Shown here piece after piece: positions 1 through 26,176 of a stretch of DNA of 64,000 nt. This DNA is from Candidatus Woesearchaeota archaeon (GTDB taxonomy: Archaea > Nanobdellota > Nanobdellia > UBA10117): contig CAYGXM010000004.1 in NCBI GenBank assembly GCA_964354105.1, positions 5,193-69,192 on the forward strand, given 5' to 3'. Within the stretch, counting starts at the first letter, position 1. Each line of letters begins with the position of its first letter. The notes under the pieces are model-generated. The model saw only the letters and a list, made by a program, of their open reading frames with translations, had not been told where the DNA came from and searched no databases. The position numbers were made by a program, and so were the translations under genes.

Positions 1-1050
1 ATCAGGAAAGATGAAAGAGCGCCAACAGGCTATGAAATGCAAGTTGATTCGCTTGAAATTATTGGCCTAGCTGAAAGATTCCCTATTACAAAAGATTTAT
101 CTGAGGAATTTCTGCGAGATGTGCGGCATTTGTGGATAAGAAGCAGAAAACTGACAACTGTATTGCGAGTTCGCAGCGAAATCCTCCAAGCGATTCGTGA
201 TTTCTACCATAAAGAAGGCTATACTGAATATCAATCGCCAATATTAACAACACAAGCCTGCGAAGGTGGCTCAACTTTGTTTGAAGTCAAAGGCTTTCCT
301 GGCAAAAAAGTTTACCTATCTCAAAGCTGGCAATTGCATGCTGAAGCAGGAATCTTTGCTTTGGAAAAGATTTACACAATTGCTCCAATGTTCAGGGCTG
401 AAAAATCAAGGACAACAAGGCACTTAGCAGAGGCCTGGCTGGCTGAAATGGAAGCTGCGTGGATGGGCTTTGATGAATTATTGAAACATGAAGAGGATTT
501 GATTATTTATGTTATACAACACGTTCTCAAAACCTGCAAGAAAGAAATGAAAGAGCTTGGCAGAGACACAACAGATTTAGAAAAACTAAAAGCACCTTTT
601 GCCAGAATAAAATATGCTGATGCTGTCAAAAAGCTGGGAAAGAAATGGGGTTATGATCTAACAGATAAAGATGAGCGCGAGTTAGTTACACAATTTGGCA
701 AGCCAGTTTTCCTGACACACTTCCCAAGAGAAATGAAAGCATTCTACATGAAGCCAGACCCAAAAGATCCCAAGACTGTTTTGGGAGCAGACTTGCTGGC
801 TCCTGGAATAGGCGAGATTACGGGCGGAAGCGAAAGAATTGCAGATGAGAAAGAGCTCCTGAAATCAATGAAAATCTACAAACTAAAGCCAGAAGACTAT
901 GGCTGGTACATGGACCTGCGCAAATTTGGTTCTATCCCTCATAGTGGAATGGGCTTAGGCATAGAACGTTTGGTGATGTGGCTGACAGGGATGCAACACA
1001 TCATGGATACCATTCCATTCCCAAGGACTATGTATAGGTTATCACCATGA
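1..1050 (+). CDS. asnS: asparaginyl-tRNA synthetase (class II), 5'-truncated at window edge
   Basis: Frame 1 is open from nt 1 (IRKDERAPTGYEMQV...), so the gene starts upstream of the window. Class II motifs 'FRAEKSRTTRHLAEAWLAEMEAAW', 'GGSERI' and the C-terminal 'YGWYMDLRKFGSIPHSGMGLGIERLVMWLTG...IPFPR' are typical of AsnRS rather than AspRS. Confidence 0.85.
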   Translation: MRKDERAPTGYEMQVDSLEIIGLAERFPITKDLSEEFLRDVRHLWIRSRKLTTVLRVRSEILQAIRDFYHKEGYTEYQSPILTTQACEGGSTLFEVKGFPGKKVYLSQSWQLHAEAGIFALEKIYTIAPMFRAEKSRTTRHLAEAWLAEMEAAWMGFDELLKHEEDLIIYVIQHVLKTCKKEMKELGRDTTDLEKLKAPFARIKYADAVKKLGKKWGYDLTDKDERELVTQFGKPVFLTHFPREMKAFYMKPDPKDPKTVLGADLLAPGIGEITGGSERIADEKELLKSMKIYKLKPEDYGWYMDLRKFGSIPHSGMGLGIERLVMWLTGMQHIMDTIPFPRTMYRLSP

Positions 1051-1511
1051 TTAACATCAGATTTGCCAAACCAGGCGAAATTAAGATAGTTAAGAAAATA
1101 TATGGAAATAGTTTTAGTGCAGATAAAGGAACAAAGCCTTTCAATTATTTCATAAAGTTCTTAACCGAAGATAGAATAAAGCAAAAAGAGATTATCTTAG
1201 CATTTGATGGGAAAAAGCCAGTAGGTTTTTGCTCATTTTATCACAAGCCAATCATTCTTACGCTCGCAGCGTATTTGGATGATATTGCGATTGTAAAAGA
1301 CTACCAACGCAAAGGTATTGGCGAACTTTTGATGAATAAACTTCTCAACGTGCTAAAAGCTAAAGGCGTACGAAGAGTCTTCTCGGATACTTGGCCTGGA
1401 AATGACGCTTCGATACAATTACACAAGAAAATGGGCTTCAAATACTGTGGTAAGATAACTAAATCTGATGGCGAAAACGCGGATTTCATCTTTTTCTCAA
1501 GAAAACCTTAG
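1047..1511 (+). CDS. GNAT-family N-acetyltransferase
   Basis: 154 aa. Acetyl-CoA binding motif A 'QRKGIGELLMNKLL'. ATGA start/stop overlap with asnS. Confidence 0.75.
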   Translation: MINIRFAKPGEIKIVKKIYGNSFSADKGTKPFNYFIKFLTEDRIKQKEIILAFDGKKPVGFCSFYHKPIILTLAAYLDDIAIVKDYQRKGIGELLMNKLLNVLKAKGVRRVFSDTWPGNDASIQLHKKMGFKYCGKITKSDGENADFIFFSRKP

Positions 1512-2326
1512 AACTTTTCAATTATTTTTTTCATCGATAGCGCATCTTGTTCTAGCAATGGAGTCTCAGAGATAAGTGTTATGTTTGTTTTTCTTTTTAC
1601 TAGCAATTTTGCCAGCTCTGCAAAATCTGGATGCTTTTCTGCTATTGGCGTATGAACATCAACCCATTGTTTTGATGCTGATGAGAACTTTACAGAATTA
1701 AAATGTGAATTTATGTGTTCTATGTGTAAAGATTTCATATGCTCTAGGATAGCTTCATAATCAATTTTGCCTTGCTCTCTTACATAAAGATGGCCCCAAT
1801 CCAGATATGGAATTACTCTTGAGCCAAACTTCTTGCGCAGGGCAGAAATCTCATCAAGGCTCCCCCATTGTGAAGCTTTTCCCATAGTTTCATATCCTAA
1901 TTTAACTTTCTTAATACCTAATTTGTCAGCTTTTTCTAAAATCTCTTTTGTAACATCTTCCATCTGCTTTTGTGCTTCCTCTTTTGATAACTTGCCGTAA
2001 TAAGCAGCATGAACAGCAATTGCATCAGCACCCATTCTCTCAGCCCTGTCTAAAGTATCAATAACTCTTTGGATAGATGCATGAACTATCGATTTCTTGT
2101 CAGAAAGCTGGTTTATGTAGTAAGGCGCATGTGCAGAAAGCCTAATTCCCAGCTCTTTGGCAACTTTGCCAACCTCTTCAGCCAGTTCTTTGCTCATATT
2201 TACACCCCTGACAAATTCAACCTCCATCGCATTCAGGCCCATTTTCTTGCAGTGTTTAATTCCGCCAATTGTAGATCTTTCAGAAGAAGTAAAGGGAACC
2301 CCGCCAGGGCCTATGAATATAGCCAT
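1508..2326 (-). CDS. endonuclease IV-like / AP endonuclease family 2 (xylose-isomerase-like TIM barrel)
   Basis: 272 aa. 'LSAHAPYYINQLS', 'AIAVHAAYYG' and 'KLGYETMG' resemble the metal-ligand blocks of Nfo-type AP endonucleases. Confidence 0.55.
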   Translation of the reverse strand: MAIFIGPGGVPFTSSERSTIGGIKHCKKMGLNAMEVEFVRGVNMSKELAEEVGKVAKELGIRLSAHAPYYINQLSDKKSIVHASIQRVIDTLDRAERMGADAIAVHAAYYGKLSKEEAQKQMEDVTKEILEKADKLGIKKVKLGYETMGKASQWGSLDEISALRKKFGSRVIPYLDWGHLYVREQGKIDYEAILEHMKSLHIEHINSHFNSVKFSSASKQWVDVHTPIAEKHPDFAELAKLLVKRKTNITLISETPLLEQDALSMKKIIEKF

Positions 2327-2359: not shown

Positions 2360-3043
2360 TTGCTGGCCATGGGCAAGCTCAAAGAAATAAAAACTCCGCC
2401 GCTTAGTGACCCTCTGCTTGCATATGAAACTGGCGTTCATATTGGTGATGGCACTCTTGGGCATTACAAAACCAAACACGATTACAGAATAGCATATTAT
2501 GGTAATTTAGCAACAGATTACGAGTTCTTTGCTAAAATTTTGCCCGACATAATCTATAAGTTATATGGACTCAAACCTACAATAACTAAACGATTGAATA
2601 GAACCTCTATAGAGCTAAGCATTCGCAGTAAAATGCTTTTTGAATTCAAGAAAGATCTTGGCTTACCAGTAGGAAATAAAAATATAATGCTAAATTTACC
2701 CAAAAAGTTGGTCTCTATTGGTGAAGGTAGCGTCAGAAATATTATTGCGGGTTTGTTTGATACAGATGGTTGTTTTAAAGTAACAAAACAGGCAGGTAAA
2801 CCTTACCCAAAAATAACAATTGCTAACAAAAGCGCTATTTTAACTGAGGTCAAACAACTTCTGCTAGAGCGTTGTATTGGCTGTAATTTATCTATAGATA
2901 GAATAACAAAAGTCAATAAGCTTGATATAAATGGGATTAAAAACACAGATTTATTCTTCCAGATAATACCTTCCAAGAATATTAAGCATTTAAATAGGTA
3001 TAAAAACTGGAAACTTAACGGGCGCTTAGCTCAGTCAGGATAG
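2360..3043 (+). CDS. free-standing LAGLIDADG-type homing-endonuclease-like protein
   Basis: Two LAGLIDADG-like motifs: 'GVHIGDGTLG' and 'IIAGLFDTDGCF'. The track start at 2360 is TTG; the first ATG is at 2369. The last 24 nt and the stop codon lie inside tRNA-Arg. Confidence 0.6.
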   Translation: MLAMGKLKEIKTPPLSDPLLAYETGVHIGDGTLGHYKTKHDYRIAYYGNLATDYEFFAKILPDIIYKLYGLKPTITKRLNRTSIELSIRSKMLFEFKKDLGLPVGNKNIMLNLPKKLVSIGEGSVRNIIAGLFDTDGCFKVTKQAGKPYPKITIANKSAILTEVKQLLLERCIGCNLSIDRITKVNKLDINGIKNTDLFFQIIPSKNIKHLNRYKNWKLNGRLAQSG

Positions 3044-3109
3044 AGCGGTTGGCTTCGGCTCTTCAGAGAAGACACCAACAGGTCGGGGGTTCAAATCCTT
3101 CAGCGCCCG
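3020..3109 (+). tRNA. tRNA-Arg(TCG) with 15-nt canonical (37/38) intron
   Basis: Acceptor GGGCGCT/AGCGCCC plus G73. D-arm GCTC..GAGC. Anticodon stem GTTGG/CCAAC. Loop CTTCGG|intron 3059-3073|A. T-arm GGGGG-TTCAAAT-CCTTC. Confidence 0.85.
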
Positions 3110-3148
3110 CTTGATAAATCTTAATAGCTTATTTGCTCATAAATTAAT

Positions 3149-4504: not shown

Positions 4505-5110
4505 CTATTGAGCTGGAGAATTTCTAATTAATTCCTTGGCTATATCTTTCTTAAGCAAAACTATTTGGTCTTCATACTTTTGCCCGGTAGGCTTCAAACC
4601 AAACTTTTCAAACAGGCGGCTCTCATAATTACTCCTGCCCATCGCCTGCGTACTTTCTAGTAACGGCGGAATAAAATCCCAAGTCGTATTATCCCATATT
4701 TGCTTCACCTTATCAGCATACATAATATCTAAAAATTTCTGTTTTTCAGGATCTGTAATAGATTGTGCATTCTTTGTGCATCGGGCATAGTCGTTAGCTA
4801 GTTCTACACATTTCTCTATAGTTTCCTGCGGCAAATTAATTGTGCCATATCCGCAAATCTCGCCTTTCTTGTAAATCTTAATCTTCCCTTCCAAATTTAA
4901 AAGAACAAAGGCCAGTTTGTCAAAATATTGTGTGTAGTATTGGGTTTTAAGCGGTTCTGCATAAGGTAATCTTGGAATCAGGCTTGCAAATCCTTCTTTT
5001 GCAATAATATCGTAATCATTCTGTCTAACAAAAATCTGCCCTACGTCTTTAAATTCGCTTAAAACGGAATCCAAAGTAGATACCTTAGCTGTCACAGCCT
5101 TCGCTTTCAT
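4505..5110 (-). CDS. hypothetical protein
   Basis: 201-aa ORF with an ATG start and no recognisable motif. Confidence 0.45.
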   Translation of the reverse strand: MKAKAVTAKVSTLDSVLSEFKDVGQIFVRQNDYDIIAKEGFASLIPRLPYAEPLKTQYYTQYFDKLAFVLLNLEGKIKIYKKGEICGYGTINLPQETIEKCVELANDYARCTKNAQSITDPEKQKFLDIMYADKVKQIWDNTTWDFIPPLLESTQAMGRSNYESRLFEKFGLKPTGQKYEDQIVLLKKDIAKELIRNSPAQ

Positions 5111-5200: not shown

Positions 5201-7378
5201 TCAGAACACTACACAATTGTAGCCTGCTGCCTGCCAAACTTCCTTGTACAAGTCTAAATCGATTTGGCCCAAGGCAGCATCGAATCTGCCTATAGTTCCT
5301 TCTCCAGCATTTTCAGGATTGGTCTTGATGAACTTTTCCAGATAGTAGGTTTTGTTAGGCTCGTTTTCGCCTAATCTGTGCCACTTTTTATCCTTGCAGT
5401 AAACAGCGTAGGCGGTCTCTCCTAATTTCAAGCCGAGCTGGCGGATTATCTGCTGCCTCAGCGTTTCTTCAGATTGTATTGATAGGTGCTCTTTATGCTT
5501 TGCAACTTTATACGCCAAATCCCTGTCAGAAACATTCCCGTTAGCAAGCTTAAGCAGTTTTTCTTTGTAGATAGCTCGAGCTTTTTCTGCCCCATAATCA
5601 AAAGCATCTAAAATTAAGCTTCGACTGGTTTCCCGCTCGAAGTCAGAGCGCAAACCATATCTGCCTTTAATGTCCACACCTTCAGAGAATAGCACGTCAT
5701 CAAGACGCCAGGCTATTTTGTTTATGCCGATAGAAAGCGCGCTGTCCGCAATCCCATAAAAAATACCAAATTCTTTGTCCAAATTGAATTGTTCCAGCGA
5801 AAGGTTATTCCTTTTAAGATAAAGGAATCTTGGCCCTATATTAATAACAGACGTATAATTGTTCATTAGGAAATCAGAAAGCTGCTTAAGTTTCGAATAA
5901 ATATTGCTACGCTCTGCTTCTGGAGTAAGTCCGTAGCGCCACTTGAAGTATTTGTCATTTTGCTGTAAATTATAGAGCTGTTCTGTGCATAAAGCATCCA
6001 AAAATTCAGCTCTTATTGTTCTTGTTTTGGGATCGCCTGTTTGAAGCATTTGCTCCAAGTTATTAATGCCTGCCAAGCCTTTAGGGGCCATTATAACTGG
6101 ATAAAATACCATTACATTTTTAATCAGACCGAACCGTGGCTCGAGTTTTAAATTGTCGCTTAGCAGCGTCATTTTTTCATCGGAGAAGCTGAAGTCTTGC
6201 CATTCTTCCCTTGTCTCCTCTTTGTGTTTGATTTGTTTTTTGAACCTCAGCGCCGGCGGACTTCTGTATGTTTTTAATACACCCCAGTACTCTACTGACC
6301 TTCTCTGCTGGGCCAAAGTCCGTTTAGAGACTGCGACCATATTGCCTAAAGATTTGCCAAAATAAATCGCGAATGGGGCGACTGCTTCGGCTTCCTTTTC
6401 CCCATTTCTCATTGCAATTTCAGAATCTACTCCGCAATAATTTCCAACAATTCTGTTGTTCTCAGGACTAGGATGGTTAATCGACCACTCTAACTCTTTC
6501 TCATGAAGAACTTTCTTCAGCTCCTCCTTCCAGAATCTTGACAAATCGTCTAAAGTATCAGATGCATTCGGCGTCAAAAGTTGGGAAAACTTGCAATTGT
6601 CTACAAAATCTATTTCTGGATGCCATACTCTCCTTACAAAACCAGAGCCGCGAACATGAGGCTCTATGCCGTCTAAACCTGTAAGTAATTTTTCAGAATT
6701 CTTTGTCTTTGTTGCCCTCAATTCAGAAACATCAAAGGGCGCATTATGTATGAAAACTGTGTTGTAAGGCTCAAGGGCTTTTGAAATTGATGTTGTTACT
6801 TCTTGTTCGCTTCCAACTTTATACACTTGAGTGCCTTCTAGATCTTCAGGTGCATTTTCTTCCAATACAAAAAGTTCCTTTTTAGAAGGTGAGGCTAATG
6901 AGCACATGGCTATTTCACCATAAATATCGCTGCCTTTTGCTTTCTTTTCGATGTCAATTGCGCAATACCTGCCTAGAATCTCCTGCGGCCTTGCCAGGCC
7001 GACTATAATTGGCTGGCTGTTATCAAACTCCAAAAGTGAATATACTGGAAAACGCAGAGCAACCATCTCCGGCTTGCTCGTGTTCAGCGATTCTTTGAAA
7101 AATTTGTGCCAGTGAACGCTAAGCCCTTTTTCAATTTCAGACCCACCCTTAACATGGAGAGTATATTTGTATTCAGACTTCTCGATTTTGCTTTCCAGAC
7201 CCAAACTCTGCAGAAGTTCTTGCTTCAGCTGGGTTATGGCTTCAAAATTGTCCCTTGCTGAAGCGAAAATATATTTTGCAGCTACAGAATGCATTTGTTT
7301 TTCGCCATTTTTCGTTGTGTAAAAATTTACAATATCCCTATGGCTGTCAACTCTAACGCCTCTAAGTATTTCAGACAT
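5201..7378 (-). CDS. family B DNA polymerase homolog with substituted polymerase catalytic residues
   Basis: Exo I 'AIDIE' (D142/E144), Exo II 'HNAPFDVSEL', Exo III 'NYCGVDSEIA'. Motif-A-like 'NVMVFYPVIM' (N where DxxSLYPSI has D). Motif-C-like 'FYGIADSAL' (YGDTDS with the first D replaced by I). Motif order and spacing fit an approximately 750-aa archaeal PolB. Confidence 0.65.
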   Translation of the reverse strand: MSEILRGVRVDSHRDIVNFYTTKNGEKQMHSVAAKYIFASARDNFEAITQLKQELLQSLGLESKIEKSEYKYTLHVKGGSEIEKGLSVHWHKFFKESLNTSKPEMVALRFPVYSLLEFDNSQPIIVGLARPQEILGRYCAIDIEKKAKGSDIYGEIAMCSLASPSKKELFVLEENAPEDLEGTQVYKVGSEQEVTTSISKALEPYNTVFIHNAPFDVSELRATKTKNSEKLLTGLDGIEPHVRGSGFVRRVWHPEIDFVDNCKFSQLLTPNASDTLDDLSRFWKEELKKVLHEKELEWSINHPSPENNRIVGNYCGVDSEIAMRNGEKEAEAVAPFAIYFGKSLGNMVAVSKRTLAQQRRSVEYWGVLKTYRSPPALRFKKQIKHKEETREEWQDFSFSDEKMTLLSDNLKLEPRFGLIKNVMVFYPVIMAPKGLAGINNLEQMLQTGDPKTRTIRAEFLDALCTEQLYNLQQNDKYFKWRYGLTPEAERSNIYSKLKQLSDFLMNNYTSVINIGPRFLYLKRNNLSLEQFNLDKEFGIFYGIADSALSIGINKIAWRLDDVLFSEGVDIKGRYGLRSDFERETSRSLILDAFDYGAEKARAIYKEKLLKLANGNVSDRDLAYKVAKHKEHLSIQSEETLRQQIIRQLGLKLGETAYAVYCKDKKWHRLGENEPNKTYYLEKFIKTNPENAGEGTIGRFDAALGQIDLDLYKEVWQAAGYNCVVF

Positions 7379-7429
7379 GACATAAAGCCAAAAGAAAGGA
7401 ATTTAAGACTTTACACGTTCTAGTGAAAA

Positions 7430-8581
7430 ATGCCGTATGTTCCAGACAAGCTAGTATCACCACTCAGCACGCCACCTACAGCATATATAACAAATACAGA
7501 TGAAAGCTGGCGCCCTGAAGGGAGGGGCAAATATTCTGCAGCTAATCTGCAGGAGATTTGGAACCGCATTAAAGTGGACTTGCATAACGCGCGAAGATTG
7601 GGCAGGGCGCACAGGCACAGCGTACATAATGCCTTCTGCTCAGAGGAAATCAAACGTAATGCTGACTTGCTTAGAACAGAGCACAAGAATGTTTTCATCA
7701 CATCATTGTCAGCTGATTTTACGCCAATAGATGAGCGCCTGAAATTTTATCCTGCGCATCCGACTGGCTGGGACCCTTTCTGTAATCTGGCAAAAGTTAA
7801 CGAAGAGATTGGCGATGCTATCCAGAAATATTCCGTCAAGTTCAAGGAAAAATATCACCAAAAACCAAAGTTAAAACATGTATTCTGGCCGATTTGTCCT
7901 TACCTTTTCGGTTATTGCTTCGAAGAGAGAGGCAATAAGATGGTTGTAAACCACATTTTCCCTGAAACAATAGACCGCACAAATGGCTTGATGACTGAAC
8001 ATGGCTACAGATGCTATGGTTCTTCAGAGAAAGAAGTTGGTTCTAACGAGCCGCAATTAGGGAATTTTGAGTGGTCTGAACTTTTAGTTTCGCCAGAAGC
8101 TGCAAAAAGGTCTAAAATCGGAATAATCCCCGGCAGAGGCTACGACTTGCGTTTTGTCTATAATTCAATTCCTTACATTTTGGATGCTGATGCAAGAGAA
8201 AAACTGGAAGTTTACAAAGCACAACACAAAATTGAACCTGGTGTTGCAAACATATTGGATATAGACTTTGCTAAAAAATTAAATTATGATAAAGTTTATG
8301 ACCAAGTCATAGACTGGTCTACTTTCATTAACAGGAATATTATTGCGAACTTTTTAGAAGACAGGATTTTGCAGCCTTTACAAATCAAAAAATTAGAAAT
8401 TATTGCGGAGAAATCCGGCTATGTAAAAGATATTACAAACTTTTACAGCTCAGGCTATTCACTTGACTGGTGGGATGTCATGGAAAATGCCGTAATGCCG
8501 CGCGATGGCATTGCCAACAAGTCTGCAATTAACAGGATAATGGGGGTGGTTTGGAATGATTGGCGAAGCTGGCTCGTCTGA
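7430..8581 (+). CDS. hypothetical protein
   Basis: 383-aa ORF, divergent from the PolB-like gene with a 51-nt intergenic spacer. No confident motif. Confidence 0.45.
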   Translation: MPYVPDKLVSPLSTPPTAYITNTDESWRPEGRGKYSAANLQEIWNRIKVDLHNARRLGRAHRHSVHNAFCSEEIKRNADLLRTEHKNVFITSLSADFTPIDERLKFYPAHPTGWDPFCNLAKVNEEIGDAIQKYSVKFKEKYHQKPKLKHVFWPICPYLFGYCFEERGNKMVVNHIFPETIDRTNGLMTEHGYRCYGSSEKEVGSNEPQLGNFEWSELLVSPEAAKRSKIGIIPGRGYDLRFVYNSIPYILDADAREKLEVYKAQHKIEPGVANILDIDFAKKLNYDKVYDQVIDWSTFINRNIIANFLEDRILQPLQIKKLEIIAEKSGYVKDITNFYSSGYSLDWWDVMENAVMPRDGIANKSAINRIMGVVWNDWRSWLV

Positions 8582-9698
8582 CAACAGATGCCCCATTAAG
8601 TTCTATTATTGCTTACGCAGAGATCAGTATGGAGATTGCCCGTTTGAGTATCCTTCGCTTCCTCCGGAATGCGAAAAACCTTGCGCCTTGGGTGTTTTTG
8701 AGACCCTCATACCTGCAGAAGACCGACGGTATCTGATGCAAGATACTTACGACAAGGGCTACAAGGCTGTTGCAATAGAATTTCATAATGTCTCGCTGAA
8801 TAAAGCCGACATGTTTATAGAATTGGAAAACGGCCTGACGCAGAGCTTGAAAAAAGAAACTAACAAGGGAAAATTTCTTCCACTTCCCTGCAAAAGCATT
8901 TCTCACAAATCTCAGCACAGGGCCAGCGAGTTCAATAAGATGCATCATTGCCAGAGAATCTTCTCTAAAATAGACCACAAAAAACTAGGCTTTCAAGATG
9001 GCATTTTATCTAGGGTTGGAACTGCGTACCATACAATATGCAACCAGCAACATCGTGATTGGATCCAGGAAAACGATCTTTTGAAGGAATTAGGCATAGG
9101 GCCTGTCAGCAGAAAGACACATTGCGAAATCGGTCTTAGATATCACTACAAAGATTTAGTGGTATCTGCACACGCAGATGAAATCCTGCAGTATTTGCCC
9201 AACACTTCCAAATTTGGCAGTGACATTGGTGCGCCTTGTGTTTTGGACATGAAGCGTAAGGCTTATTCTATCTACGAAGAATATAGCTATTTGATGCAAC
9301 TCACTGCAAATATACTTGGCGTAGAAGAAACGCACAAAACTGATTCCGAATATTTTTACTTAATCACAGCTAAAAGGCCGCGAAGAGAAGTCATAGGAAG
9401 ATACAGGCTGCCAGAATATCATATAACTAAAATAGCAAAGAATGGCTCGATTATTAAACAATTCCATTCCGAACTCATCGTAACAAATGCCGAGCAATCA
9501 GAGCTGCTAAACGACAAACTAAAATGGGAAAAGAACAAAATGCTGCTCACAGATGTTGGAGACTGTACAAGCTGTTTTGATAAAGATGTTTGCAATTACA
9601 CTACAAAAACTATGTGTGAGAAGAGAATAAATGCGCGGGAAACCCTTGAGGATGTATTAAAGGCTGTCCTGCCAAACAAGGAGCTTCCAGGAACTTAG
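8556..9698 (+). CDS. candidate Cas4/RecB-like PD-(D/E)xK nuclease with Fe-S cysteine signature
   Basis: C-terminal 'CTSCFDKDVC' (C-x2-C-x5-C, 9564-9593) plus N-terminal cysteines, as in Cas4/AddB-type 4Fe-4S nucleases. Candidate 'HADEIL ... VLDMKRK ... YLMQL' nuclease motifs. 26-nt overlap with the upstream ORF. Confidence 0.35.
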   Translation: MIGEAGSSDNRCPIKFYYCLRRDQYGDCPFEYPSLPPECEKPCALGVFETLIPAEDRRYLMQDTYDKGYKAVAIEFHNVSLNKADMFIELENGLTQSLKKETNKGKFLPLPCKSISHKSQHRASEFNKMHHCQRIFSKIDHKKLGFQDGILSRVGTAYHTICNQQHRDWIQENDLLKELGIGPVSRKTHCEIGLRYHYKDLVVSAHADEILQYLPNTSKFGSDIGAPCVLDMKRKAYSIYEEYSYLMQLTANILGVEETHKTDSEYFYLITAKRPRREVIGRYRLPEYHITKIAKNGSIIKQFHSELIVTNAEQSELLNDKLKWEKNKMLLTDVGDCTSCFDKDVCNYTTKTMCEKRINARETLEDVLKAVLPNKELPGT

Positions 9699-10009: not shown

Positions 10010-10093
10010 GCGGGAGTAGCGAAGTGGTCAAACGTGCTAGACTCAGAATCTAGTGGCTTAGTGCCTTCAGAGGTTCGAATCCTCTCTCCCGCA
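10010..10093 (+). tRNA. tRNA-Leu(CAG), uninterrupted
   Basis: Acceptor GCGGGAG/CTCCCGC plus A73. Anticodon arm CTAGA-CTCAGAA-TCTAG. The variable arm and T-arm are identical to tRNA-Leu(TAA). Confidence 0.9.
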
Positions 10094-14629: not shown

Positions 14630-14715
14630 GGGCCCTTGGTCTAGCGGTATGACGTCACCCTTACACCATTAAGGAAGAAAGGTGGAGGTCGCCAGTTCGA
14701 ATCTGGCAGGGCCCA
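14630..14715 (+). tRNA. tRNA-Val(TAC) with 14-nt canonical intron
   Basis: Acceptor GGGCCCT/AGGGCCC plus A73. Anticodon stem TCACC/GGTGG. Loop CTTACA|CCATTAAGGAAGAA|A. T-arm GCCAG-TTCGAAT-CTGGC. Confidence 0.85.
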
Positions 14716-14729
14716 CTAAATTCTTAGAA

Positions 14730-15414: not shown

Positions 15415-15939
15415 CTAATACTGAATTCCTTTCTGCGCTTTGATGCCTGCTTTCAGCGGATGTTTTATATCTCTGATTTCGTTAACAAAATCTGCTTTCT
15501 TGATCAATTCTTTTGATGCATATCTTCCAGTTAGCACGACGACTGTCTTACTGGGTAAATCCCTAAGGGCTTTGAGAACTTCAGCTAATGTCAAGAGCTT
15601 GCAGTAAAGTGCTAAATTAATCTCATCAAGTATCAACAAATGTGGTTTTTTCTTCTTTGAGATATCAACAGCGAACTTCAGGGCGTTCCTTGCCAGCTTT
15701 TTGTCTTCATCCGTCAGATTCTTCAGGCCAATCCAGCCTTTCCTGCCGAATTGGTGGACTTCATAATAGGGCTTCAACATTTTCTGTATCTTGTATTCGC
15801 CTGTGTGCTTCCACCATTTCAAGAATTGAATTACAACAACACGATGCTTATGTCCGATAGAGCGCATAGCTAGGCCTAATGATGCTGTTGTCTTACCGGC
15901 ACCTTCACCTGTGTAGACAAAAATTTGTGGTCTAGCCAT
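15415..15939 (-). CDS. cobO: ATP:cob(I)alamin adenosyltransferase (CobA/CobO/BtuR family)
   Basis: 'VYTGEGAGKTTASLGLAMRSIGHKHRVVVIQFLK' and 'LLILDEINLAL'. The start is set at 'MARPQIF' (ATG 15939), giving an ATGGCTAG overlap with the upstream ORF. Confidence 0.75.
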   Translation of the reverse strand: MARPQIFVYTGEGAGKTTASLGLAMRSIGHKHRVVVIQFLKWWKHTGEYKIQKMLKPYYEVHQFGRKGWIGLKNLTDEDKKLARNALKFAVDISKKKKPHLLILDEINLALYCKLLTLAEVLKALRDLPSKTVVVLTGRYASKELIKKADFVNEIRDIKHPLKAGIKAQKGIQY

Positions 15940-16330
15940 GTTGCTCCCAGAACCAATCTTCAATCGGCTTTTCAAGCATGTAGTTCGGCTCTCTTTGTTC
16001 GCCTTTTGGAAAAGGCATATCTATAAGTTCTGCAAGATATGCATTAATCTCCAGTTCATAGCCTAAAGTTGGTTTTTCTTTGCCGGATCTGCAATTCTCA
16101 CAATAAGTTTTATGCCAATCATAAACTTTTTTTATTCTATCTCTAAGCTTAACATCGTCTTTGTCCTTAAGGTCGAAATGAATTATCATCTCAATTCCAT
16201 TTTCATATTTAGGAGGTCTCCTGCTATCCAGCTTAATGTAAGTATCAGTTAGCTCTATTATACGGAAAGAAGAGAAATGATGGTCTAAGGTTATTCCAGC
16301 ACCAAGATATTCCTCAATTCCTGTGGCCAT
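15932..16330 (-). CDS. hypothetical protein
   Basis: 132-aa ORF between lrp and cobO on the same strand. Confidence 0.4.
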   Translation of the reverse strand: MATGIEEYLGAGITLDHHFSSFRIIELTDTYIKLDSRRPPKYENGIEMIIHFDLKDKDDVKLRDRIKKVYDWHKTYCENCRSGKEKPTLGYELEINAYLAELIDMPFPKGEQREPNYMLEKPIEDWFWEQHG

Positions 16331-17964: not shown

Positions 17965-20157
17965 TTAAGGAGTAGGGCAAAGTGTTGATGCACACCATCC
18001 TGCTGTTTCTGCATGAGCCACTACATATGGCTCTGCTTCTGGCTTTTCTTTCTGCTCTAACTCTCCGATGTAGAGAACTTGCTCTGCTTTGCTTCCATAA
18101 CGGTAGACTGTTATGCCCTTGCACTTTAATTTGAAGGCTAGCTCGTAAGCTTTCTTTACGTCTTCAACAGAAGCATTTGGCGGGAAATTAATTGTCTTGC
18201 TGACTGCATTGTCTGTATATTTCTGGAATGCTGCCTGCATCTTTACATGCCATTCTGGTTTTATATCAAGAGCTGTTACGAAAACATCTCTTACATCTTT
18301 TGGAATCTCCTTGAAGTTCTTTATGCTGCCTGTTTTTGCAATCTTGTTCATCAATTCTTCGCTGTAGAAGCCTCTTGCTTTGGCAACATCTTCAAAAATA
18401 TGGTTTGTTTCCAATAAACGCGTGCCTTCCAGCACATTTCTTACAAAAGAAACTGCAAATAACGGCTCAATTCCGGAACTGCAGTTTGCAATTATTGATA
18501 TTGTGCCTGTCGGAGCAATTGTTGTGCAGGTTGCATTCCTCATATTTTTGATTTTTTGCTTATCCCAGCTGCTGCCCTTGAAGTTCGGGAAACTTCCCCG
18601 ATCTCTACCGATTTTTTGTGAAGCTGCATGTGATTCATCATTTATGAATTTCATCAATCTCTCAGCTAACTTTAATGCAGCATCTGAATCATATCTGATT
18701 CCTAGCATGAGTAATAAATCAGCCCAGCCCATTATTCCTAAGCCTATTCTCCTGTTGGCTTTTGTCATCTGCTCTATCTCAGGAATAGGGAACCTGCTTG
18801 CATCAATAACATTATCCAAAAAGTGCACGGCCTTTTGTGTTATTTTCTTGAATTTCAGCCAATCAATCTCATATTTTCCATTTTTCAGCTTGTGTGTGAT
18901 CTTTGTTAGATTAATTGAACCTAAATTGCAGCTCTCATATGGATGCAGAGGCTGTTCTCCGCATGGGTTCGTTGCTTCAATTTCGCCTATTTGAGATGTT
19001 GGATTTTTTCTGTTGATTTCATCTATGAAAATAACCCCTGGATCTCCTGTTTTCCATGCATAATTTAAAATCAGCGACCAAATTTCCCTGGCTTTTACTT
19101 TCTGGACGGCTTTTCCTGTTCTCGGGTTTATCAATTCAAAGTCTTTGCCTTTTGCAACAGCTTCCATAAAAGCATCTGTTACTGCAACAGACAAATTGAA
19201 ATTAGTTAAAACATTCTGCTGGGCCTTTGCAGTTATAAATTCAACAATATCGGGATGATCAACACGCAAGATGCCCATGTTTGCGCCTCTGCGTTTTCCG
19301 CCCTGCTTGATTACATTTGTTGTCTGGTCAAAAATTGTTGCAAAAGTTACGGGCCCTGATGCTACTCCTTTTGTGCTTCTTACTAAATCTCCTTTTGGCC
19401 TCAACCTGCTGAAGCTAAAGCCTGTACCGCCAGCCTGCTGCTGGACAATTGCCATGTGCTTCAATGCAGTAAAGATGCCATCTAACGAATCTGGAATTGG
19501 AATTACATAACATGCTGATAAAAGTCCGAGATTTGTGCCTGCATTCATCAGTGTTGGAGTATTTGGCATGAATTCCCTGCTTGCAAGCATGTCATAGAAT
19601 TCTTCTTCGGCCAGCTTTGCGCCGGCAGCAGTTGCGCCATAATTCCTGTCGACATCTGATATGGCATGTGCAACTCTCTTGAAAAGCTGTGCAGGGTTTT
19701 CAATAACCTTGCCCTGCTCGTTTCTCAGCAGATATCTTCTTTGTAAAACAGTAAGGGCATTAAGGCCTAGTTTTAATTCATCTCTTATTCCAAGAAGAGA
19801 CTTTGCAGCCCTTTCCTCTGCTCTCTTTTGCCTGTAAAGAATGTAAGCTTTGGCTACTTTGGAGAAGCCTTTCTTCATCAAAGTTTCTTCAACTAAATCC
19901 TGGATATGCTCGACTGCAGGGGTTTTCCCGATAAATTTCTTCTCAAGGATTTTAACAACTTCATCAGCCACTTGCCTTGATTTAAGGCCATTTGGCTCTG
20001 CAACAGCCTCAAAAGCCTTCAAAATAGCACTTCTAATCTTCTCTGGCTGGAATTGCTCTAATTCTCCTGTTCTTTTCTTTACTTGAGAAATCGCGCTAGT
20101 TTTAGGTGCCTTGGATACGGCGACCTTAGTCGCTTTTGCCTTTTTCGGCTTCTTCAT
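17965..20157 (-). CDS. nrdJ: class II (adenosylcobalamin-dependent) ribonucleotide reductase with N-terminal ATP-cone
   Basis: ATP-cone 'VKKRTGELEQFQPEKIRSAILKAF'. 'MPNTPTLMNAG', 'LSACYV', 'NPCGEQPLHPYESCNLGSINL', 'TIAPTGTIS', and a C-terminal Cys pair 'CASTLC'. Confidence 0.9.
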   Translation of the reverse strand: MKKPKKAKATKVAVSKAPKTSAISQVKKRTGELEQFQPEKIRSAILKAFEAVAEPNGLKSRQVADEVVKILEKKFIGKTPAVEHIQDLVEETLMKKGFSKVAKAYILYRQKRAEERAAKSLLGIRDELKLGLNALTVLQRRYLLRNEQGKVIENPAQLFKRVAHAISDVDRNYGATAAGAKLAEEEFYDMLASREFMPNTPTLMNAGTNLGLLSACYVIPIPDSLDGIFTALKHMAIVQQQAGGTGFSFSRLRPKGDLVRSTKGVASGPVTFATIFDQTTNVIKQGGKRRGANMGILRVDHPDIVEFITAKAQQNVLTNFNLSVAVTDAFMEAVAKGKDFELINPRTGKAVQKVKAREIWSLILNYAWKTGDPGVIFIDEINRKNPTSQIGEIEATNPCGEQPLHPYESCNLGSINLTKITHKLKNGKYEIDWLKFKKITQKAVHFLDNVIDASRFPIPEIEQMTKANRRIGLGIMGWADLLLMLGIRYDSDAALKLAERLMKFINDESHAASQKIGRDRGSFPNFKGSSWDKQKIKNMRNATCTTIAPTGTISIIANCSSGIEPLFAVSFVRNVLEGTRLLETNHIFEDVAKARGFYSEELMNKIAKTGSIKNFKEIPKDVRDVFVTALDIKPEWHVKMQAAFQKYTDNAVSKTINFPPNASVEDVKKAYELAFKLKCKGITVYRYGSKAEQVLYIGELEQKEKPEAEPYVVAHAETAGWCASTLCPTP

Positions 20158-23698: not shown

Positions 23699-26176
23699 TT
23701 ATCCACACTTAGAGAAACCACAGTTATGGCAAATCATGCAGCCTTCACTTATTTCCAGGATGCCTTGGCATTCTGGGCATTCCGGCAGGACGCCTGCATC
23801 TGCAACTGAAATCTTATTGTTGTTAATTTCCTTTTCTTTTGCAATTAATTGCGTCTGGTTTTGCGCCTCTGCGAATTCTGTCAGCTGTGTCTGGCCAAGA
23901 TTTGCGTGGACAGTCAATATTTTTGCTATTGCATCAGGAATAGAATGCACTACTCCAAGTTTGGAGATGGTAGGCATTGGCCCTCTTATGCCCCTCAACT
24001 GTTCAATTATATTGTCCACTGGCATTCCTGCTCTCAAAGCAAGAGAAACTAATCTGGATATGGATTCGCATTTTGCTGCAAGAACTCCGCCGCTTTTCCC
24101 TATTGTGGAGAATAATTCAAATGGCTTACCTGCAGCGTCGTCATTAATTGTGACGTATAAATTGCCGTATCCTGTTTTTATTTTGTAAGTTTTCCCCTCT
24201 AGCGATTCTGGCCTGCTCTTTGGCGTAACAACTGTTGTCATTGGTTGCGGCATAACTACAGTTTGAGCGGCCGGCTCTTTTTTTACATTTATGACTTGAA
24301 TTTGCCGAGAGCCATCACGGTAAACTGTAAGGCCTTTGCAGCCTGTTTCCCAGGCCAGCCAGTATGCAGCAAGAATTTCTTCCTTGCTGGCTGAATTCGG
24401 GAAGTTTATTGTTTTTGAAACTGCATTATCAGTGTATTTCTGGAAAACTGCCTGCATTCTGATATGATCTTCAGGCGTCAAATCATGCGCAGTTACAAAA
24501 ATTTTCCTGACATCATCTGGAATTTCTTTCATCTCAGCTATACTGAACTTCTTTGACAGCTGCTGCATCAATTCTTCGCTGTAAAAACCGCGCTCCTTTG
24601 CAATTCTTTCAAAATAAGGATTGCATTCATACAATGTAAATGTCGGCGTGTGCCTCTCGTAAGCAATTGCAAAAAGTGGTTCAATTCCTTGGGATGCATT
24701 TGCAATTACAGCAATAGTGCCTGTTGGCGCAATTGTTGTGCAGGCAGCATTTCTGGTGCCATGTTTCTGCGCTTCGCTCCTTACCAAATTCCAATCTAGC
24801 TGGGAATCTTCTCTTCTGTACATGTCTTTCGCAATTTCAGGATTCTGCCAGACCGATATCTTGAAGTTCGGGAAAGGGCCGCGCTCTTTTGCCAAATCTA
24901 TAGATGCCAGATGGCTGTGATAATTGATAAACTCCATAACTCTTTCCGCTAATTTCAGAGCCTTGTCAGAGTTGTATGGTACTCCTAATAAAATAAGCAT
25001 GTCCGCCCAGCCCATTATTCCCAAGCCGATTTTTCTATTGCCTCTGGTCATGGCAGCTATCATGGAAAGAGGATAATTGTTCATGTCAACAACATTATCT
25101 AAAAATCTTGCAGCAAGATGCACTGCTTCTTTCAGCTTGTCCCAGTTAATTGTTCCATCTTCTACAAATTTTCCAAGGTTTATGCTGCCTAAATTGCATG
25201 ATTCGTATGGCTGCAAGGGCTGCTCGCCGCAAGGATTTGTGCTTTCGATAAGGCCCAAGGCAGGAACGACATTCGTTTCAGGGCAATTCATCCTGTCGAT
25301 AAAAACTATGCCGGGCTCGCCATTCAGCCATGCATTCTCAGCAAGCACCTTAAACATGGCTTTTGCCCTTCTCTTGCCAACAGCTTCTTTTGTGTGCGGT
25401 GCAATTAATTCATATTCTTCATCTTTTTCAAAAGCACCCATGAATTTGTCCGTGACTGCGACAGATAAATTAAAGTTGGAAATTTGGCCTTCTACATTCT
25501 TGCAGTGAATCCATTCCTCTACATCAGGATGGTCAATGCGTAGAATTCCCATGTTTGCTCCGCGTCTTGTTCCTCCCTGTTTAATCGATTCTGTGCCTTC
25601 ATTCAAGACTTTCAGCCATGAGACAGGTCCTGATGCTTCCCTTCCTGTTGACTTTACAACAGCTCCACGATGCCGACATCTTGAAAAACTAAAACCAGTG
25701 CCTCCTCCAGTCTTGTGTATTATCGCAGTATTTTTTACAGCATCAAAAATTGAATCCCTTGAGTGTTCATCCCCTATAGAATCTTCAATCGGAAGGACAA
25801 AGCAGGCAGAAAGCTGTTGGAGTTTGCGGCCGGCATTCATCAATGTTGGGGAATTTGGCATGAATTCTATGGATATCATCATTTTATGGAATTTATCTGC
25901 CCATTCTTTCACCAGAGTTTTCTTTTTCTCGTCTTTCTCTATTAAGCCATACAATTCTTCTTTAGAAATATCTGTAGAAATATTAAATTTATAGAAAACT
26001 TCTGCGCAGGCAGTATTCCAGGCAACGCGCCAGAACATTTCTTCAGGCGTCTCTATAACTTCGCCATTATCATTTCTCGCCAAGTATCTCTTTTCGAGAA
26101 CGGTAATAGAAGATGGGGACAATCCTAGCAGATTTTCATATGTTTCGACACTAAAGGCCAAGCCACGCACCTCCAA
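23699..26176 (-). CDS. nrdJ: class II ribonucleotide reductase, long form with C-terminal zinc-ribbon tail
   Basis: 'MPNSPTLMNAG', 'LSACFV', 'NPCGEQPLQPYESCNLGSINL', 'TIAPTGTIA', C-terminal 'CPECQG...CHNCGFSKCG'. No ATP-cone. The apparent start is TTG, with no ATG in the open frame upstream of the conserved core. Confidence 0.88.
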   Translation of the reverse strand: MEVRGLAFSVETYENLLGLSPSSITVLEKRYLARNDNGEVIETPEEMFWRVAWNTACAEVFYKFNISTDISKEELYGLIEKDEKKKTLVKEWADKFHKMMISIEFMPNSPTLMNAGRKLQQLSACFVLPIEDSIGDEHSRDSIFDAVKNTAIIHKTGGGTGFSFSRCRHRGAVVKSTGREASGPVSWLKVLNEGTESIKQGGTRRGANMGILRIDHPDVEEWIHCKNVEGQISNFNLSVAVTDKFMGAFEKDEEYELIAPHTKEAVGKRRAKAMFKVLAENAWLNGEPGIVFIDRMNCPETNVVPALGLIESTNPCGEQPLQPYESCNLGSINLGKFVEDGTINWDKLKEAVHLAARFLDNVVDMNNYPLSMIAAMTRGNRKIGLGIMGWADMLILLGVPYNSDKALKLAERVMEFINYHSHLASIDLAKERGPFPNFKISVWQNPEIAKDMYRREDSQLDWNLVRSEAQKHGTRNAACTTIAPTGTIAVIANASQGIEPLFAIAYERHTPTFTLYECNPYFERIAKERGFYSEELMQQLSKKFSIAEMKEIPDDVRKIFVTAHDLTPEDHIRMQAVFQKYTDNAVSKTINFPNSASKEEILAAYWLAWETGCKGLTVYRDGSRQIQVINVKKEPAAQTVVMPQPMTTVVTPKSRPESLEGKTYKIKTGYGNLYVTINDDAAGKPFELFSTIGKSGGVLAAKCESISRLVSLALRAGMPVDNIIEQLRGIRGPMPTISKLGVVHSIPDAIAKILTVHANLGQTQLTEFAEAQNQTQLIAKEKEINNNKISVADAGVLPECPECQGILEISEGCMICHNCGFSKCG

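Follow-up and report, generated by a model that had tools for sequence, protein, structure and literature searches.

A DPANN family B DNA polymerase homologue that appears to have kept its exonuclease site and lost its polymerase catalytic residues

One gene on the reverse strand of the analysed window (the whole 64-kb stretch of DNA from a Candidatus Woesearchaeota archaeon) raises the question whether a family B DNA polymerase (PolB) may lose the capacity for DNA synthesis while its 3'-5' exonuclease site is maintained, and which function such a protein could fulfil.

5201..7378, reverse strand: gene of the PolB-derived protein (725 aa) with N-terminal, exonuclease, palm, fingers and thumb domains

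Fold and family of the 725-aa protein

The open reading frame is real and encodes 725 aa, and a re-check of its translation recovered all motif strings quoted in a sequence-only reading of this DNA where that reading had placed them. Using the single sequence as query, no match was obtained in Pfam, NCBIfam, PHROG or, by phmmer, the PDB, and in hmmscan the protein reached the gathering threshold of neither PF03104 nor PF00136, with no Pfam match even at E<=10. A profile built from 29 distant relatives, in contrast, matched the PolB of Pyrococcus and Thermococcus in the PDB over the exonuclease and thumb domains (E 2.5e-38). The PolB homology thus becomes visible only with the family profile and not with the single sequence.

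According to hhalign the homology extends over the full length of the protein, residues 8-717 being aligned with residues 8-775 of the Pyrococcus furiosus (Pfu) polymerase (Prob 99.5, E 2.8e-22; the Pfu sequence used for the residue mapping was PDB-verified), and a full-length alignment was likewise obtained with E. coli Pol II (Prob 95.6). The AlphaFold2 (AF2) model reached a pLDDT of 89.9 and a pTM of 0.88 when an alignment of 36 sequences was supplied, while an input of three sequences resulted in a pLDDT of 33 only. In a Foldseek comparison the model matched archaeal PolB structures with an E-value of 2e-23 and TM-scores of up to 0.67, the highest scores (0.62-0.67) being those of the “edition mode” complexes of the P. 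abyssi PolB. Matches in a library of viral structures were weaker than those to cellular archaeal PolBs, so that a viral origin is not favoured. Taken together, hhalign, AF2 and Foldseek recovered the complete architecture of the PolB superfamily, consisting of the N-terminal, exonuclease, palm, fingers and thumb domains.

All named members of the family belong to DPANN archaea. The 26 relatives that span the exonuclease domain are highly divergent, with about 20-27% identity. PF03104 recognises five of the 29 family members at E<=0.01, PF00136 not a single one. Word-indexed homologue searches returned two to three close relatives only, also when alignments were used as input, and a locus search with the alignment of the close relatives led to a single GTDB genome. 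The members are annotated as “hypothetical”, “RNase H-like” or “3'-5' exonuclease”. The family is therefore missed by current annotation, as it escapes the Pfam PolB models as well as surveys seeded with polymerase domains, and no published description of it was found. No second DNA polymerase, neither PolB nor PolD, was detected among the open reading frames of at least 120 aa in the window.

Divergent neighbouring genes and the question of a mobile or defence origin

The PolB-like gene is part of a divergent gene arrangement.

7379..7429, no strand: divergent intergenic spacer of 51 bp with a central TTAAAT element
7430..8581, forward strand: partner A (383 aa), invariably the gene next to the PolB-like gene on its divergent side
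8556..9698, forward strand: partner B (380 aa), a PD-(D/E)xK nuclease (RecB/Cas4/Dna2-like) gene that overlaps partner A by 26 nt
4505..5110, reverse strand: downstream open reading frame (201 aa), following the PolB-like gene also in the loci L001 and L002

The divergent pairing of the PolB-like gene with partners A and B was observed in all loci with enough flanking sequence (9/9). In eight loci the spacer measures 50-55 bp and carries a central TTTAAA-like element, with the encoded proteins being about 20-30% identical; it may putatively represent a shared bidirectional archaeal promoter. The adjacency of the three genes is, of course, no proof of a physical interaction of their products.

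Partner A, with a size of about 370 aa across the family, has orthologues in L005, L010, L011, L012/13, L014, L015, L016 and L003, and all its homologues are labelled “hypothetical”. No matches were obtained in Pfam (six orthologues), PHROG or PADLOC, and a profile search against the PDB was also negative. The idea that partner A is a degenerate paralogue of partner B was rejected based on a negative hhalign comparison of the two, and hhalign against the PolB-like family was negative as well.

Partner B shares 34% identity (E 1e-66) with its orthologue in L005. The copy in the window has no direct Pfam match, remaining below the detection of PF12705, and the profile search against the PDB was negative by sequence. 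The orthologues of L005 (33.2 bits, E 6.9e-8) and L010 (23.5 bits), however, exceed the PF12705 cutoff of 22 bits. The motifs expected of a Cas4/RecB-like nuclease (D...(D/E)xK...QxxxY and C...CX2CX5C) were identified in the window protein as HAD206, D231-x-K233 and Q248, with the tyrosine of QxxxY replaced by N252, and as an Fe-S cluster signature (C337-x2-C340-x5-C346).

The 201-aa open reading frame was considered as a further member and rejected, since it has no homologue in the distant loci (none at the matching position in L011 or L012); it is conserved in close relatives only, probably does not belong to the core module, and yielded no family matches. In the window the region is flanked by tRNA genes at 3020-3110 and 10010-10093.

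The three-gene module could also be a defence system or the remnant of a mobile element, resembling casposons or prespacer processing, instead of serving housekeeping repair. The whole three-gene set evolves at a much higher rate than the housekeeping genes around it, which would fit a conflict or defence system. Between the window and L012, whose genomes are syntenic, identity amounts to 52% in the aspartyl-tRNA synthetase and 83% in the AP endonuclease, but only 23% in the PolB-like protein. Cas4-like nucleases and DEDD exonucleases act in CRISPR adaptation, PolB is paired with Cas4-like genes in casposons (PMC4046053), and tRNA genes are situated on both sides. However, a scan of the window revealed no CRISPR array or tandem repeat, neither Cas1 nor an integrase was present among the Pfam-scanned neighbours, and a known defence system was rejected because PADLOC gave insignificant matches only (E 0.02-0.04) for the PolB-like protein and both partners. 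Moreover, the chromosomal position is syntenic between the window and the distant L012, and in L005, L010, L014 and L015 the PolB-like gene adjoins ribosomal-protein or EF operons. Considering in addition that RNA-primed cellular B3 polymerases match most closely, rather than protein-primed, casposon or viral ones, a mobile or defence origin seems improbable.

Exonuclease site, polymerase motifs and C-terminus

The exonuclease motifs are located as follows.

6947..6961, reverse strand: Exo I AIDIE, residues 140-144 (D142, E144), aligned with Pfu D141/E143 (posterior 0.99/0.98)
6731..6745, reverse strand: Exo II NAPFD, residues 212-216 (N212, D216), aligned with Pfu N210/D215
6425..6439, reverse strand: Exo III YCGVD, residues 314-318 (Y314, D318), aligned with Pfu Y311/D315 (posterior 0.999)

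The sequence-only reading had recognised the three motifs by eye as intact and had pointed to an almost identical numbering of Exo I in the Pfu polymerase. The profile alignments agree on both points (D142 corresponding to D141 and E144 to E143), the posterior probabilities of all six residue mappings ranging from 0.91 to 0.999, so that the residues of the PolB signatures DxE, NxxxFD and YxxxD are all accounted for. Among the 26 family members spanning the exonuclease domain D142, E144, D216, Y314 and D318 are invariant, and N212 is an asparagine in 24. Y314 and D318 are the sole two invariant columns across the alignment of 29 sequences, and the exonuclease residues belong to only about 20 columns which are conserved in at least 80% of the family. 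Judged by these alignments, the family is a fast-evolving one with a fixed exonuclease active site.

The polymerase part presents a different picture.

6092..6130, reverse strand: remnant of motif A GLIKNVMVFYPVI (residues 417-429), with the Y426-P427 anchor kept and the Asp segment deleted
5966..6001, reverse strand: fingers helices with the acidic family motif LDALCTEQLYNL (family consensus LDAxCEEPLxDL)
5810..5854, reverse strand: beta-hairpin remnant of motif C TSVINIGPRFLYLKR (residues 509-523), with N513-I-G-P516 at the position of Y-x-D-T-D
5741..5758, reverse strand: YGIADS (residues 541-546), a palm strand ahead of the KKRY-equivalent region
5630..5686, reverse strand: thumb base SEGVDIKGRYGLRSDFERE (family consensus GxDxxGxxGxRxxFE)

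In motif A, hhalign pairs Y426-P427 with Y410-P411 of the Pfu polymerase and Y424-P425 of E. coli Pol II. The metal-binding aspartate of DxxSLYPS (Pfu D405, E. coli D419) falls with both templates into a gap of five residues in the 725-aa protein, the Asp-bearing segments “VYLDF” and “LDYKS” of the templates being placed in this deletion. The alignments to both templates pair “EPRFGLIKNV” with “EPEKGLWENI”, by which N421 corresponds to Pfu N399. The string “NVMVFYPVI” does stand at residues 421-429 as quoted, but the earlier assignment of N421 as counterpart of the aspartate is probably wrong according to the two-template alignments. The AF2 strand formed by residues 417-427 represents the motif A strand, and it contains no Asp or Glu in any register.

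Motif B (KxxxNSxYG), which supplies the lysine and asparagine for dNTP binding, had been reported as missing, and the alignments to both templates confirm its absence. Depending on the template, the counterparts of this Lys and Asn (K488/N492 in Pfu, K493/N497 in E. coli) are A462/K476 or D475/K479, and Y482-G483 alone survives of the motif. It is situated downstream of the acidic fingers motif, which stands where the basic motif B region would be expected; the fingers helices in the AF2 model comprise residues 450-463 and 465-472.

For motif C the sequence-only reading had chosen YGIADS, a register that has to be corrected. Based on hhalign and AF2 the place of motif C is held by the hairpin 509-523 (strands 509-514 and 519-523), and YGIADS was rejected as a candidate: it aligns with “EYEGFYKRG” of Pfu, lies in the AF2 strand 538-551 and corresponds to a column which is variable in the family. 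Pfu D541 and D543 map to N513 and G515, and in E. coli Pol II D545 falls into a gap and D547 maps to G515. N513 is near-invariant in the family, and the hairpin contains no Asp or Glu, so that YxDTDS has no counterpart. The family pattern S-[N/D]-R within the hairpin may put an Arg at the two-metal site. The YxGG region of the Pfu polymerase aligns to a gap as well. Family-wide, the positions of motifs A, B and C are variable or non-acidic and no acidic palm column is conserved; the posterior probabilities of the palm alignment are modest (0.3-0.7).

The thumb base, by comparison, is well preserved. HMMER aligned the family positions 562-700 with Pfu 596-732 (E 1.6e-5), the hhalign posterior reaches 0.98 at S565, and G575 and E581 are conserved in at least 86%; the motif is likely a DNA-binding element retained from PolB.

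None of the profile alignments placed intact aspartates at motifs A and C, the outcome which the sequence-only reading had itself named as speaking against its proposal. Its central idea, a PolB with an exonuclease site but without the polymerase carboxylates, was borne out by profile searches, hhalign, AF2 and family conservation. Sequence comparison and structure prediction hence support the classification of the 725-aa protein as a PolB homologue that has kept the exonuclease site and lost the polymerase catalytic residues.

A further feature was detected at the C-terminus.

5246..5266, reverse strand: PIP-like motif QIDLDLY (residues 705-711), to which the family consensus “Q..L..f” aligns, followed by a tail of 14 residues

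A relaxed form of the motif is present in 24 of 32 family C-termini compared with 16% of control ORF tails, and the strict form Qxx[LIVM]xx[FWY] in 10/32 compared with 8%. The motif of the window protein is not terminal but lies internally, 14 residues before the end, and the closest relative (P0002) carries K in place of its Q. From its sequence we infer that the motif may bind PCNA.

A remaining function as DNA polymerase, for instance as a specialised translesion (TLS) enzyme with a rearranged, non-canonical active site, deserves consideration in view of PolB2/Dpo2, for which inactivity had been predicted before TLS activity was demonstrated (PMC7544198, PMC8764526). PolB2 and piPolB polymerise despite lacking the first aspartate of motif C, and a non-canonical site has been proposed for PolB2/Dpo2 (PMC7544198) and is seen in piPolB; the loss of this aspartate alone is therefore no proof of inactivity. 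In addition, the whole palm, fingers and thumb scaffold is kept at high model confidence, the fingers motif holds conserved acidic residues, and in some family members a D precedes the YP anchor by five residues. However, the absence of any Asp or Glu from the motif A strand and the motif C hairpin, the replacement of the dNTP-binding Lys and Asn, partly by acidic residues, and the lack of both a family-conserved acidic palm column and the YxGG region argue against such an activity. Missing both motif C aspartates together with that of motif A makes a stronger case for polymerase loss than the one made before. Since PolB2 furthermore displays the opposite pattern, keeping one motif C aspartate and having lost exonuclease motifs, a polymerase function appears very unlikely.

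Equally implausible is a pseudoenzyme that uses neither activity and serves the replisome purely as a structural scaffold, in the manner of the Pol epsilon C-terminal half, poxvirus F12 or herpesvirus UL8. Such a reading could draw on the structural functions well established for other inactivated PolB derivatives (PMC2669801, PMC4304020), on the evident loss of the polymerase site and on the PIP-like tails, which suggest an association with the replisome. Against it stands the selective retention of the five invariant DEDDy residues while the remainder of the protein has drifted to about 20% identity, a pattern that a scaffold would not be expected to show, and known derivatives of this type have degraded exonuclease sites.

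Proposed role and comparison with known systems

The explanation that we consider fairly probable on the basis of the sequence comparisons and the structural model is that the protein derives from an archaeal, B3-like PolB and became a dedicated 3'-5' exonuclease in a DNA end-editing or repair module. It would most likely act as a PCNA-tethered exonuclease in the editing or repair of 3' ends. The catalytically dead palm, fingers and thumb may still hold a primer-template junction or a DNA end, as does PolB in editing mode, and the held 3' end would be fed into the exonuclease site, with the PIP-like C-terminus tethering the protein to PCNA. Together with partner A and the Cas4/Dna2-like partner B, whose class typically comprises 5'-end or flap nucleases, it could form a housekeeping module for the editing or repair of DNA ends, which strips mismatched or blocked 3' termini, either as proofreading in trans for a polymerase lacking an exonuclease or as clean-up of gaps and ends. 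As partner A has no recognisable fold, the composition and function proposed for the complex are conjectural. The proposal nevertheless provides a concrete candidate complex composed of the exonuclease, the Cas4/Dna2-like nuclease, partner A and possibly PCNA.

A more far-reaching version is doubtful. In it, DPANN archaea would possess a previously unrecognised, near-universal three-protein machine for DNA maintenance, in which a PCNA-bound, polymerase-dead PolB proofreads in trans and is coupled to an Fe-S nuclease of the Dna2/Cas4 type and to a third, novel subunit, with one bidirectional TATA box driving all three genes. If true, its PolB would be an archaeal analogue of DnaQ made from a whole polymerase, serving the replicase or gap-filling polymerases.

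The best match of the 725-aa protein in both sequence profile and structure is the B3 PolB (Pfu, KOD, Tgo and P. abyssi polymerases). Both have the same domain order and length as well as a near-identical DEDDy numbering; the 725-aa protein also retains the thumb base motif and, from motif A, the YP anchor, and the C-terminal PIP of Pfu (“QVGLTSWL”) is paralleled by the PIP-like motif. Unlike the B3 PolB, the 725-aa protein lacks the motif A Asp, the K/N of motif B, both motif C Asp and the YxGG region, and it features an acidic family-specific fingers motif and its own conserved gene neighbourhood. It also differs from casposon and protein-primed PolB, given that no Cas1 or integrase gene lies nearby and its best matches are RNA-primed cellular enzymes. 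Partner B shares the PD-(D/E)xK motifs and the C...CX2CX5C Fe-S signature with Cas4, RecB, AddB and Dna2 but has neither a CRISPR-cas context nor a helicase domain.

DnaQ, the epsilon subunit of bacterial Pol III, is a separate DEDD-type 3'-5' exonuclease serving synthesis and repair at the sliding clamp. By analogy the 725-aa protein might likewise act in trans. However, DnaQ is a small single-domain exonuclease of the DEDDh type, whereas the predicted DEDDy site resides inside a complete, catalytically dead polymerase scaffold, and DnaQ-type chains matched the family profile with E-values of 0.009-0.02 only.

PolB2/Dpo2 (Rogozin 2008; Makarova 2014) resembles the family as a diverged archaeal PolB paralogue whose catalytic motifs carry substitutions, with a suspected role in repair and a conserved operon partnership. 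In PolB2 Exo I is not conserved, Exo III is missing, and a single motif C Asp is accompanied by a D(K/R) motif (PMC7544198), whereas the 725-aa protein has intact exonuclease motifs and a motif C hairpin free of Asp. The operon partners of PolB2 are arCOG07300 (about 90 aa) and an inactivated RadA (PMC4104785); the neighbours here, partner A, the PD-(D/E)xK nuclease and the 201-aa open reading frame, include no RadA-like match.

The C-terminal module of Pol epsilon, poxvirus F12 and herpesvirus UL8 share with the 725-aa protein a PolB fold without polymerase catalysis. Their exonuclease site is degraded or absent too (PMC2669801, PMC4304020, PMC5499653), in contrast to the PolB-like family in which this site is the most conserved part. 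With the proposed exonuclease, the replication and repair repertoire of the genome-reduced DPANN archaea, itself poorly understood, would gain a hitherto unrecognised component, and the protein would offer a natural experiment on the contribution of the PolB scaffold to proofreading apart from synthesis. Among the known inactivated PolB derivatives (PolB2, the C-terminal half of Pol epsilon, F12 and UL8) the exonuclease site or both sites were lost, whereas the PolB-like family of DPANN archaea appears to have taken the reverse direction, with the exonuclease strictly conserved and the polymerase erased.

Homology and fold of the PolB-like protein

The gene under study was confirmed as follows:
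5201..7378, minus strand, PolB-like ORF of 725 aa

Translation verified its nucleotide coordinates, and every motif string quoted in the sequence-only reading was found at the residue number assigned to it. As a single sequence the protein gave no match to Pfam even at E<=10, none to NCBIfam or PHROG and none to the PDB by phmmer. Motifs recognised by eye were therefore the sole basis of the earlier claim of a polymerase-dead PolB, which needed testing. A word-indexed search of 5.8 billion proteins returned two relatives only (94% and 62% identity), whereas 33 distant relatives sharing about 19-30% identity were recovered when 1.84 billion cluster representatives were searched exhaustively with HMMER.

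A family profile built from 29 of these 33 relatives matched PDB entries for family B polymerases of Pyrococcus and Thermococcus (E 2.5e-38) over the exonuclease domain (query 140-376 on 135-366 of the P. furiosus polymerase, Pfu Pol) and the thumb (562-700 on 596-732), with Pol delta, E. coli Pol II, herpesvirus and Pol epsilon polymerases scoring lower. Using hhalign the family aligned with Pfu Pol (template 775/775 identical to PDB 3a2f_A) in a single full-length alignment (8-717 on 8-775, Prob 99.5, E 2.8e-22) and with E. coli Pol II (template from NC_000913) over 3-711 on 6-783 (Prob 95.6). The AlphaFold2 (AF2) model reached a pLDDT of 89.9 and a pTM of 0.88 with a 36-sequence alignment, compared with a pLDDT of 33 with three sequences. 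Foldseek matched this model to archaeal B3 polymerases (E 2e-23 across about 830 columns), the top TM-scores of 0.62-0.67 belonging to P. abyssi PolB on DNA "in edition mode", and viral PolBs were the poorer structural match. Based on these concordant profile and model comparisons the protein is judged to be a complete PolB-fold protein, nearest to group B3.

A divergent three-gene module in DPANN archaea

All organism-named family members belong to DPANN archaea (Aenigmatarchaeota, Nanoarchaeia/Nanoarchaeota, "DPANN group"), and their annotations read hypothetical, "ribonuclease H-like" or "3'-5' exonuclease". In every locus with sufficient upstream sequence (the window and, in other genomes, L003, L005, L010, L011, L012/13, L014, L015 and L016) the gene is paired divergently with two partners, which in the window are:
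7430..8581, plus strand, partner A, 383 aa
8556..9698, plus strand, partner B, nuclease of 380 aa

Across loci partner A measures 330-383 aa and partner B 340-394 aa, the latter often overlapping the former. In eight loci the PolB-like gene and partner A are separated by a spacer of 50-55 bp despite a protein identity of only about 20-30%:
window, 7379-7429
L005, 3873-3924
L010, 5950-6000
L011, 2537-2591
L013, 2208-2257
L014, 1485-1534
L015, 4950-5000
L016, 4951-5000

Each of these spacers contains a central TTTAAA/TTAAAT/TTTAAG element. The element would be consistent with one TATA box used in both directions at about 25 bp from either start codon, and may be palindromic, serving two leaderless transcripts.

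Partner B belongs to the PD-(D/E)xK nucleases, and two of its orthologues pass the threshold of Pfam PF12705; the window copy carries HAD206, D231-x-K233, Q248 and the Fe-S signature C337-x2-C340-x5-C346 (Cas4/AddB/Dna2-type). In L011 partner B (343-1461, minus strand) is seemingly circularly permuted, the LIGTALH, QH, CE and GHAD segments, central in other orthologues, lying C-terminally past the CxxC region; this could be real or an assembly or gene-call artefact. For partner A no match was found in Pfam, PADLOC, a PDB profile search or by hhalign against partner B and the PolB-like family. A 201-aa ORF downstream of the PolB-like gene is conserved in close relatives only.

The module frequently adjoins ribosomal-protein or elongation-factor operons, and searches for Cas1, integrase, CRISPR and PADLOC signatures found none for it; a role in defence or mobility appears unlikely. 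The window as a whole is part of an archaeal chromosome and encodes aEF1A, aEF2, aminoacyl-tRNA synthetases, ribonucleotide reductases (RNRs), tRNAs and base-excision repair genes. Further features observed in it are:
1508-2326, minus strand, AP endonuclease (AP_endonuc_2 / Nfo-like), 83% identical to L012 9027-9845
1508-2326, 13587-14096, 14730-15383 and 21533-22147, abundant base-damage repair genes: the Nfo-like AP endonuclease, a dCMP/cytidine deaminase, an Ogg-HhH (AGOG-type) glycosylase and an HhH-GPD EndoIII-like glycosylase, a neighbourhood partly syntenic in L012
2360-3043, free-standing LAGLIDADG-domain ORF overlapping the 5' end of the following tRNA
3020-3110, tRNA-Arg(TCG), unusually long at 91 nt and probably containing an intron
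14630-14716, tRNA with an anticodon unassignable by ARAGORN (Rfam 56 bits)
17965-20157, 23699-26176 and 15415-15975, minus strand, two RNR large-subunit paralogues (an ATP-cone in one, a C-terminal TSCPD domain in the other) and, nearby, a corrinoid adenosyltransferase (BtuR/CobO)
34553-39979 and 39981-51425, minus strand, giant neighbouring ORFs of 1808 and 3814 aa, the latter with at least 13 NosD / right-handed beta-helix repeats and Ig-like domains; both are probably surface proteins of a type common in DPANN episymbionts
54384-55223 and 51609-54038, minus strand, Fic/DOC-domain protein beside an 809-aa TPR/AAA_16-like protein, which may form a toxin or signalling pair

Exonuclease and polymerase sites

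The Exo I, II and III motifs, read by eye as intact, proved to be so: D142, E144, N212, D216, Y314 and D318 map onto Pfu D141, E143, N210, D215, Y311 and D315 in the profile alignment (posterior probabilities 0.91-0.999). Five of them are unchanged in all members covering the position (26/26 or 29/29), and N212 is Asn in 24/26 and His in the other two. Only about 20 columns of the family alignment are at least 80% conserved, the catalytic exonuclease residues among them, and only Y314 and D318 are fully invariant. The window and L012 genomes share synteny in the neighbourhood of the PolB-like gene (GNAT-AspRS, AP endonuclease, DUF6015, Ogg), yet the PolB-like orthologues share only 23% identity compared with 52% for AspRS and 83% for the AP endonuclease, the last value reflecting either unusually strong conservation or recent transfer. 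The selective retention of the DEDDy residues despite rapid drift argues strongly for a functional exonuclease, and a pure scaffold seems quite improbable.

The polymerase site required a different register from the one proposed by eye. In both template alignments "EPRFGLIKNV" pairs with Pfu "EPEKGLWENI", the next five template residues, which include the catalytic Asp (VYLDF in Pfu, LDYKS in E. coli), are left opposite a gap, and the alignment resumes at the Tyr-Pro anchor Y426-P427. N421, earlier taken for the motif A Asp position, is thus more likely the equivalent of Pfu N399 than of D405. Likewise, both alignments place the Y-x-D-T-D hairpin of motif C not on "YGIADS" but on V511-I512-N513-I514-G515-P516, where the AF2 model has the expected beta-hairpin (strands 509-514 and 519-523, turn GPRF); "YGIADS" lies in the subsequent long strand 538-551, matching Pfu "EYEGFYKRG" ahead of the KKRY motif. 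The distance to the well-anchored thumb motif (54 residues versus 68 in Pfu) supports 509-523 as the motif C register. Confidence in the palm alignment is moderate (0.3-0.7), but residues 417-427 and 509-523 contain neither Asp nor Glu, so that the loss of the polymerase site holds whichever register is correct. The reported absence of motif B was borne out, its Lys and Asn being substituted and Y482-G483 the sole remnant. No family member matches Pfam DNA_pol_B, and 5/29 match DNA_pol_B_exo1.

In PolB2 and piPolB the loss of the first motif C Asp alone is compatible with activity (PMC7544198), and firmer grounds than those of the sequence-only reading therefore matter. With the motif A Asp deleted, the motif C hairpin free of acids and motif B replaced, the predicted polymerase-dead PolB with retained exonuclease motifs holds, and a non-canonical polymerase is rather improbable.

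In place of the basic dNTP-binding helix of active PolBs, the fingers (residues 460-471) carry a strongly conserved family-specific acidic motif, LDAxCEEPLxDL, which might form a metal site or an interface with other proteins.

Proposed function and comparison with known systems

Most members end in a PIP-like motif (e.g. QSSISGWF, QRDLWEYV, QPTLLDF or the short form QxxLF-COOH). The relaxed pattern occurs in 24/32 family tails (16% in control ORF tails) and the strict one in 10/32 (8% in the controls); because the sequences are related, p-values are only indicative. In the window protein the motif is QIDLDLY (705-711), and the chain continues for 14 residues beyond it.

As judged from sequence and model, the protein combines a PolB fold, an intact, selectively kept DEDDy site, an erased polymerase site and a conserved thumb base, and belongs to a conserved three-gene module including a predicted active Fe-S PD-(D/E)xK nuclease. 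The dead polymerase scaffold may serve as a platform which binds DNA junctions, separates strands and passes 3' ends into the exonuclease site, similar to PolB in editing mode, and the protein may be tethered to PCNA. The protein, partner A and the Cas4/Dna2-like nuclease would together form a housekeeping end-editing or repair machine, acting either in proofreading in trans or in the removal of blocked 3' ends and flap processing.

In our full-text literature search, limited in coverage, no description came up either of this gene module or of a PolB family that is polymerase-dead but exonuclease-proficient. Because its searches were seeded with polymerase domains, the 2020 PolB diversity survey (PMC7544198) would miss such a family. 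PolB2/Dpo2 shows the opposite pattern, having lost the exonuclease motifs while retaining one motif C Asp; its operon partners differ, and it is active as a TLS polymerase (PMC7544198, PMC4104785, PMC8764526). Unlike in the window family, the exonuclease is also lost or degraded in the C-terminal half of Pol epsilon, in poxvirus F12 and in Tlr1-like helicase fusions (PMC2669801, PMC4304020, PMC5499653). We regard the family as derived from the PolB superfamily, with a conserved gene partnership and a predicted functional polarity that are both new.
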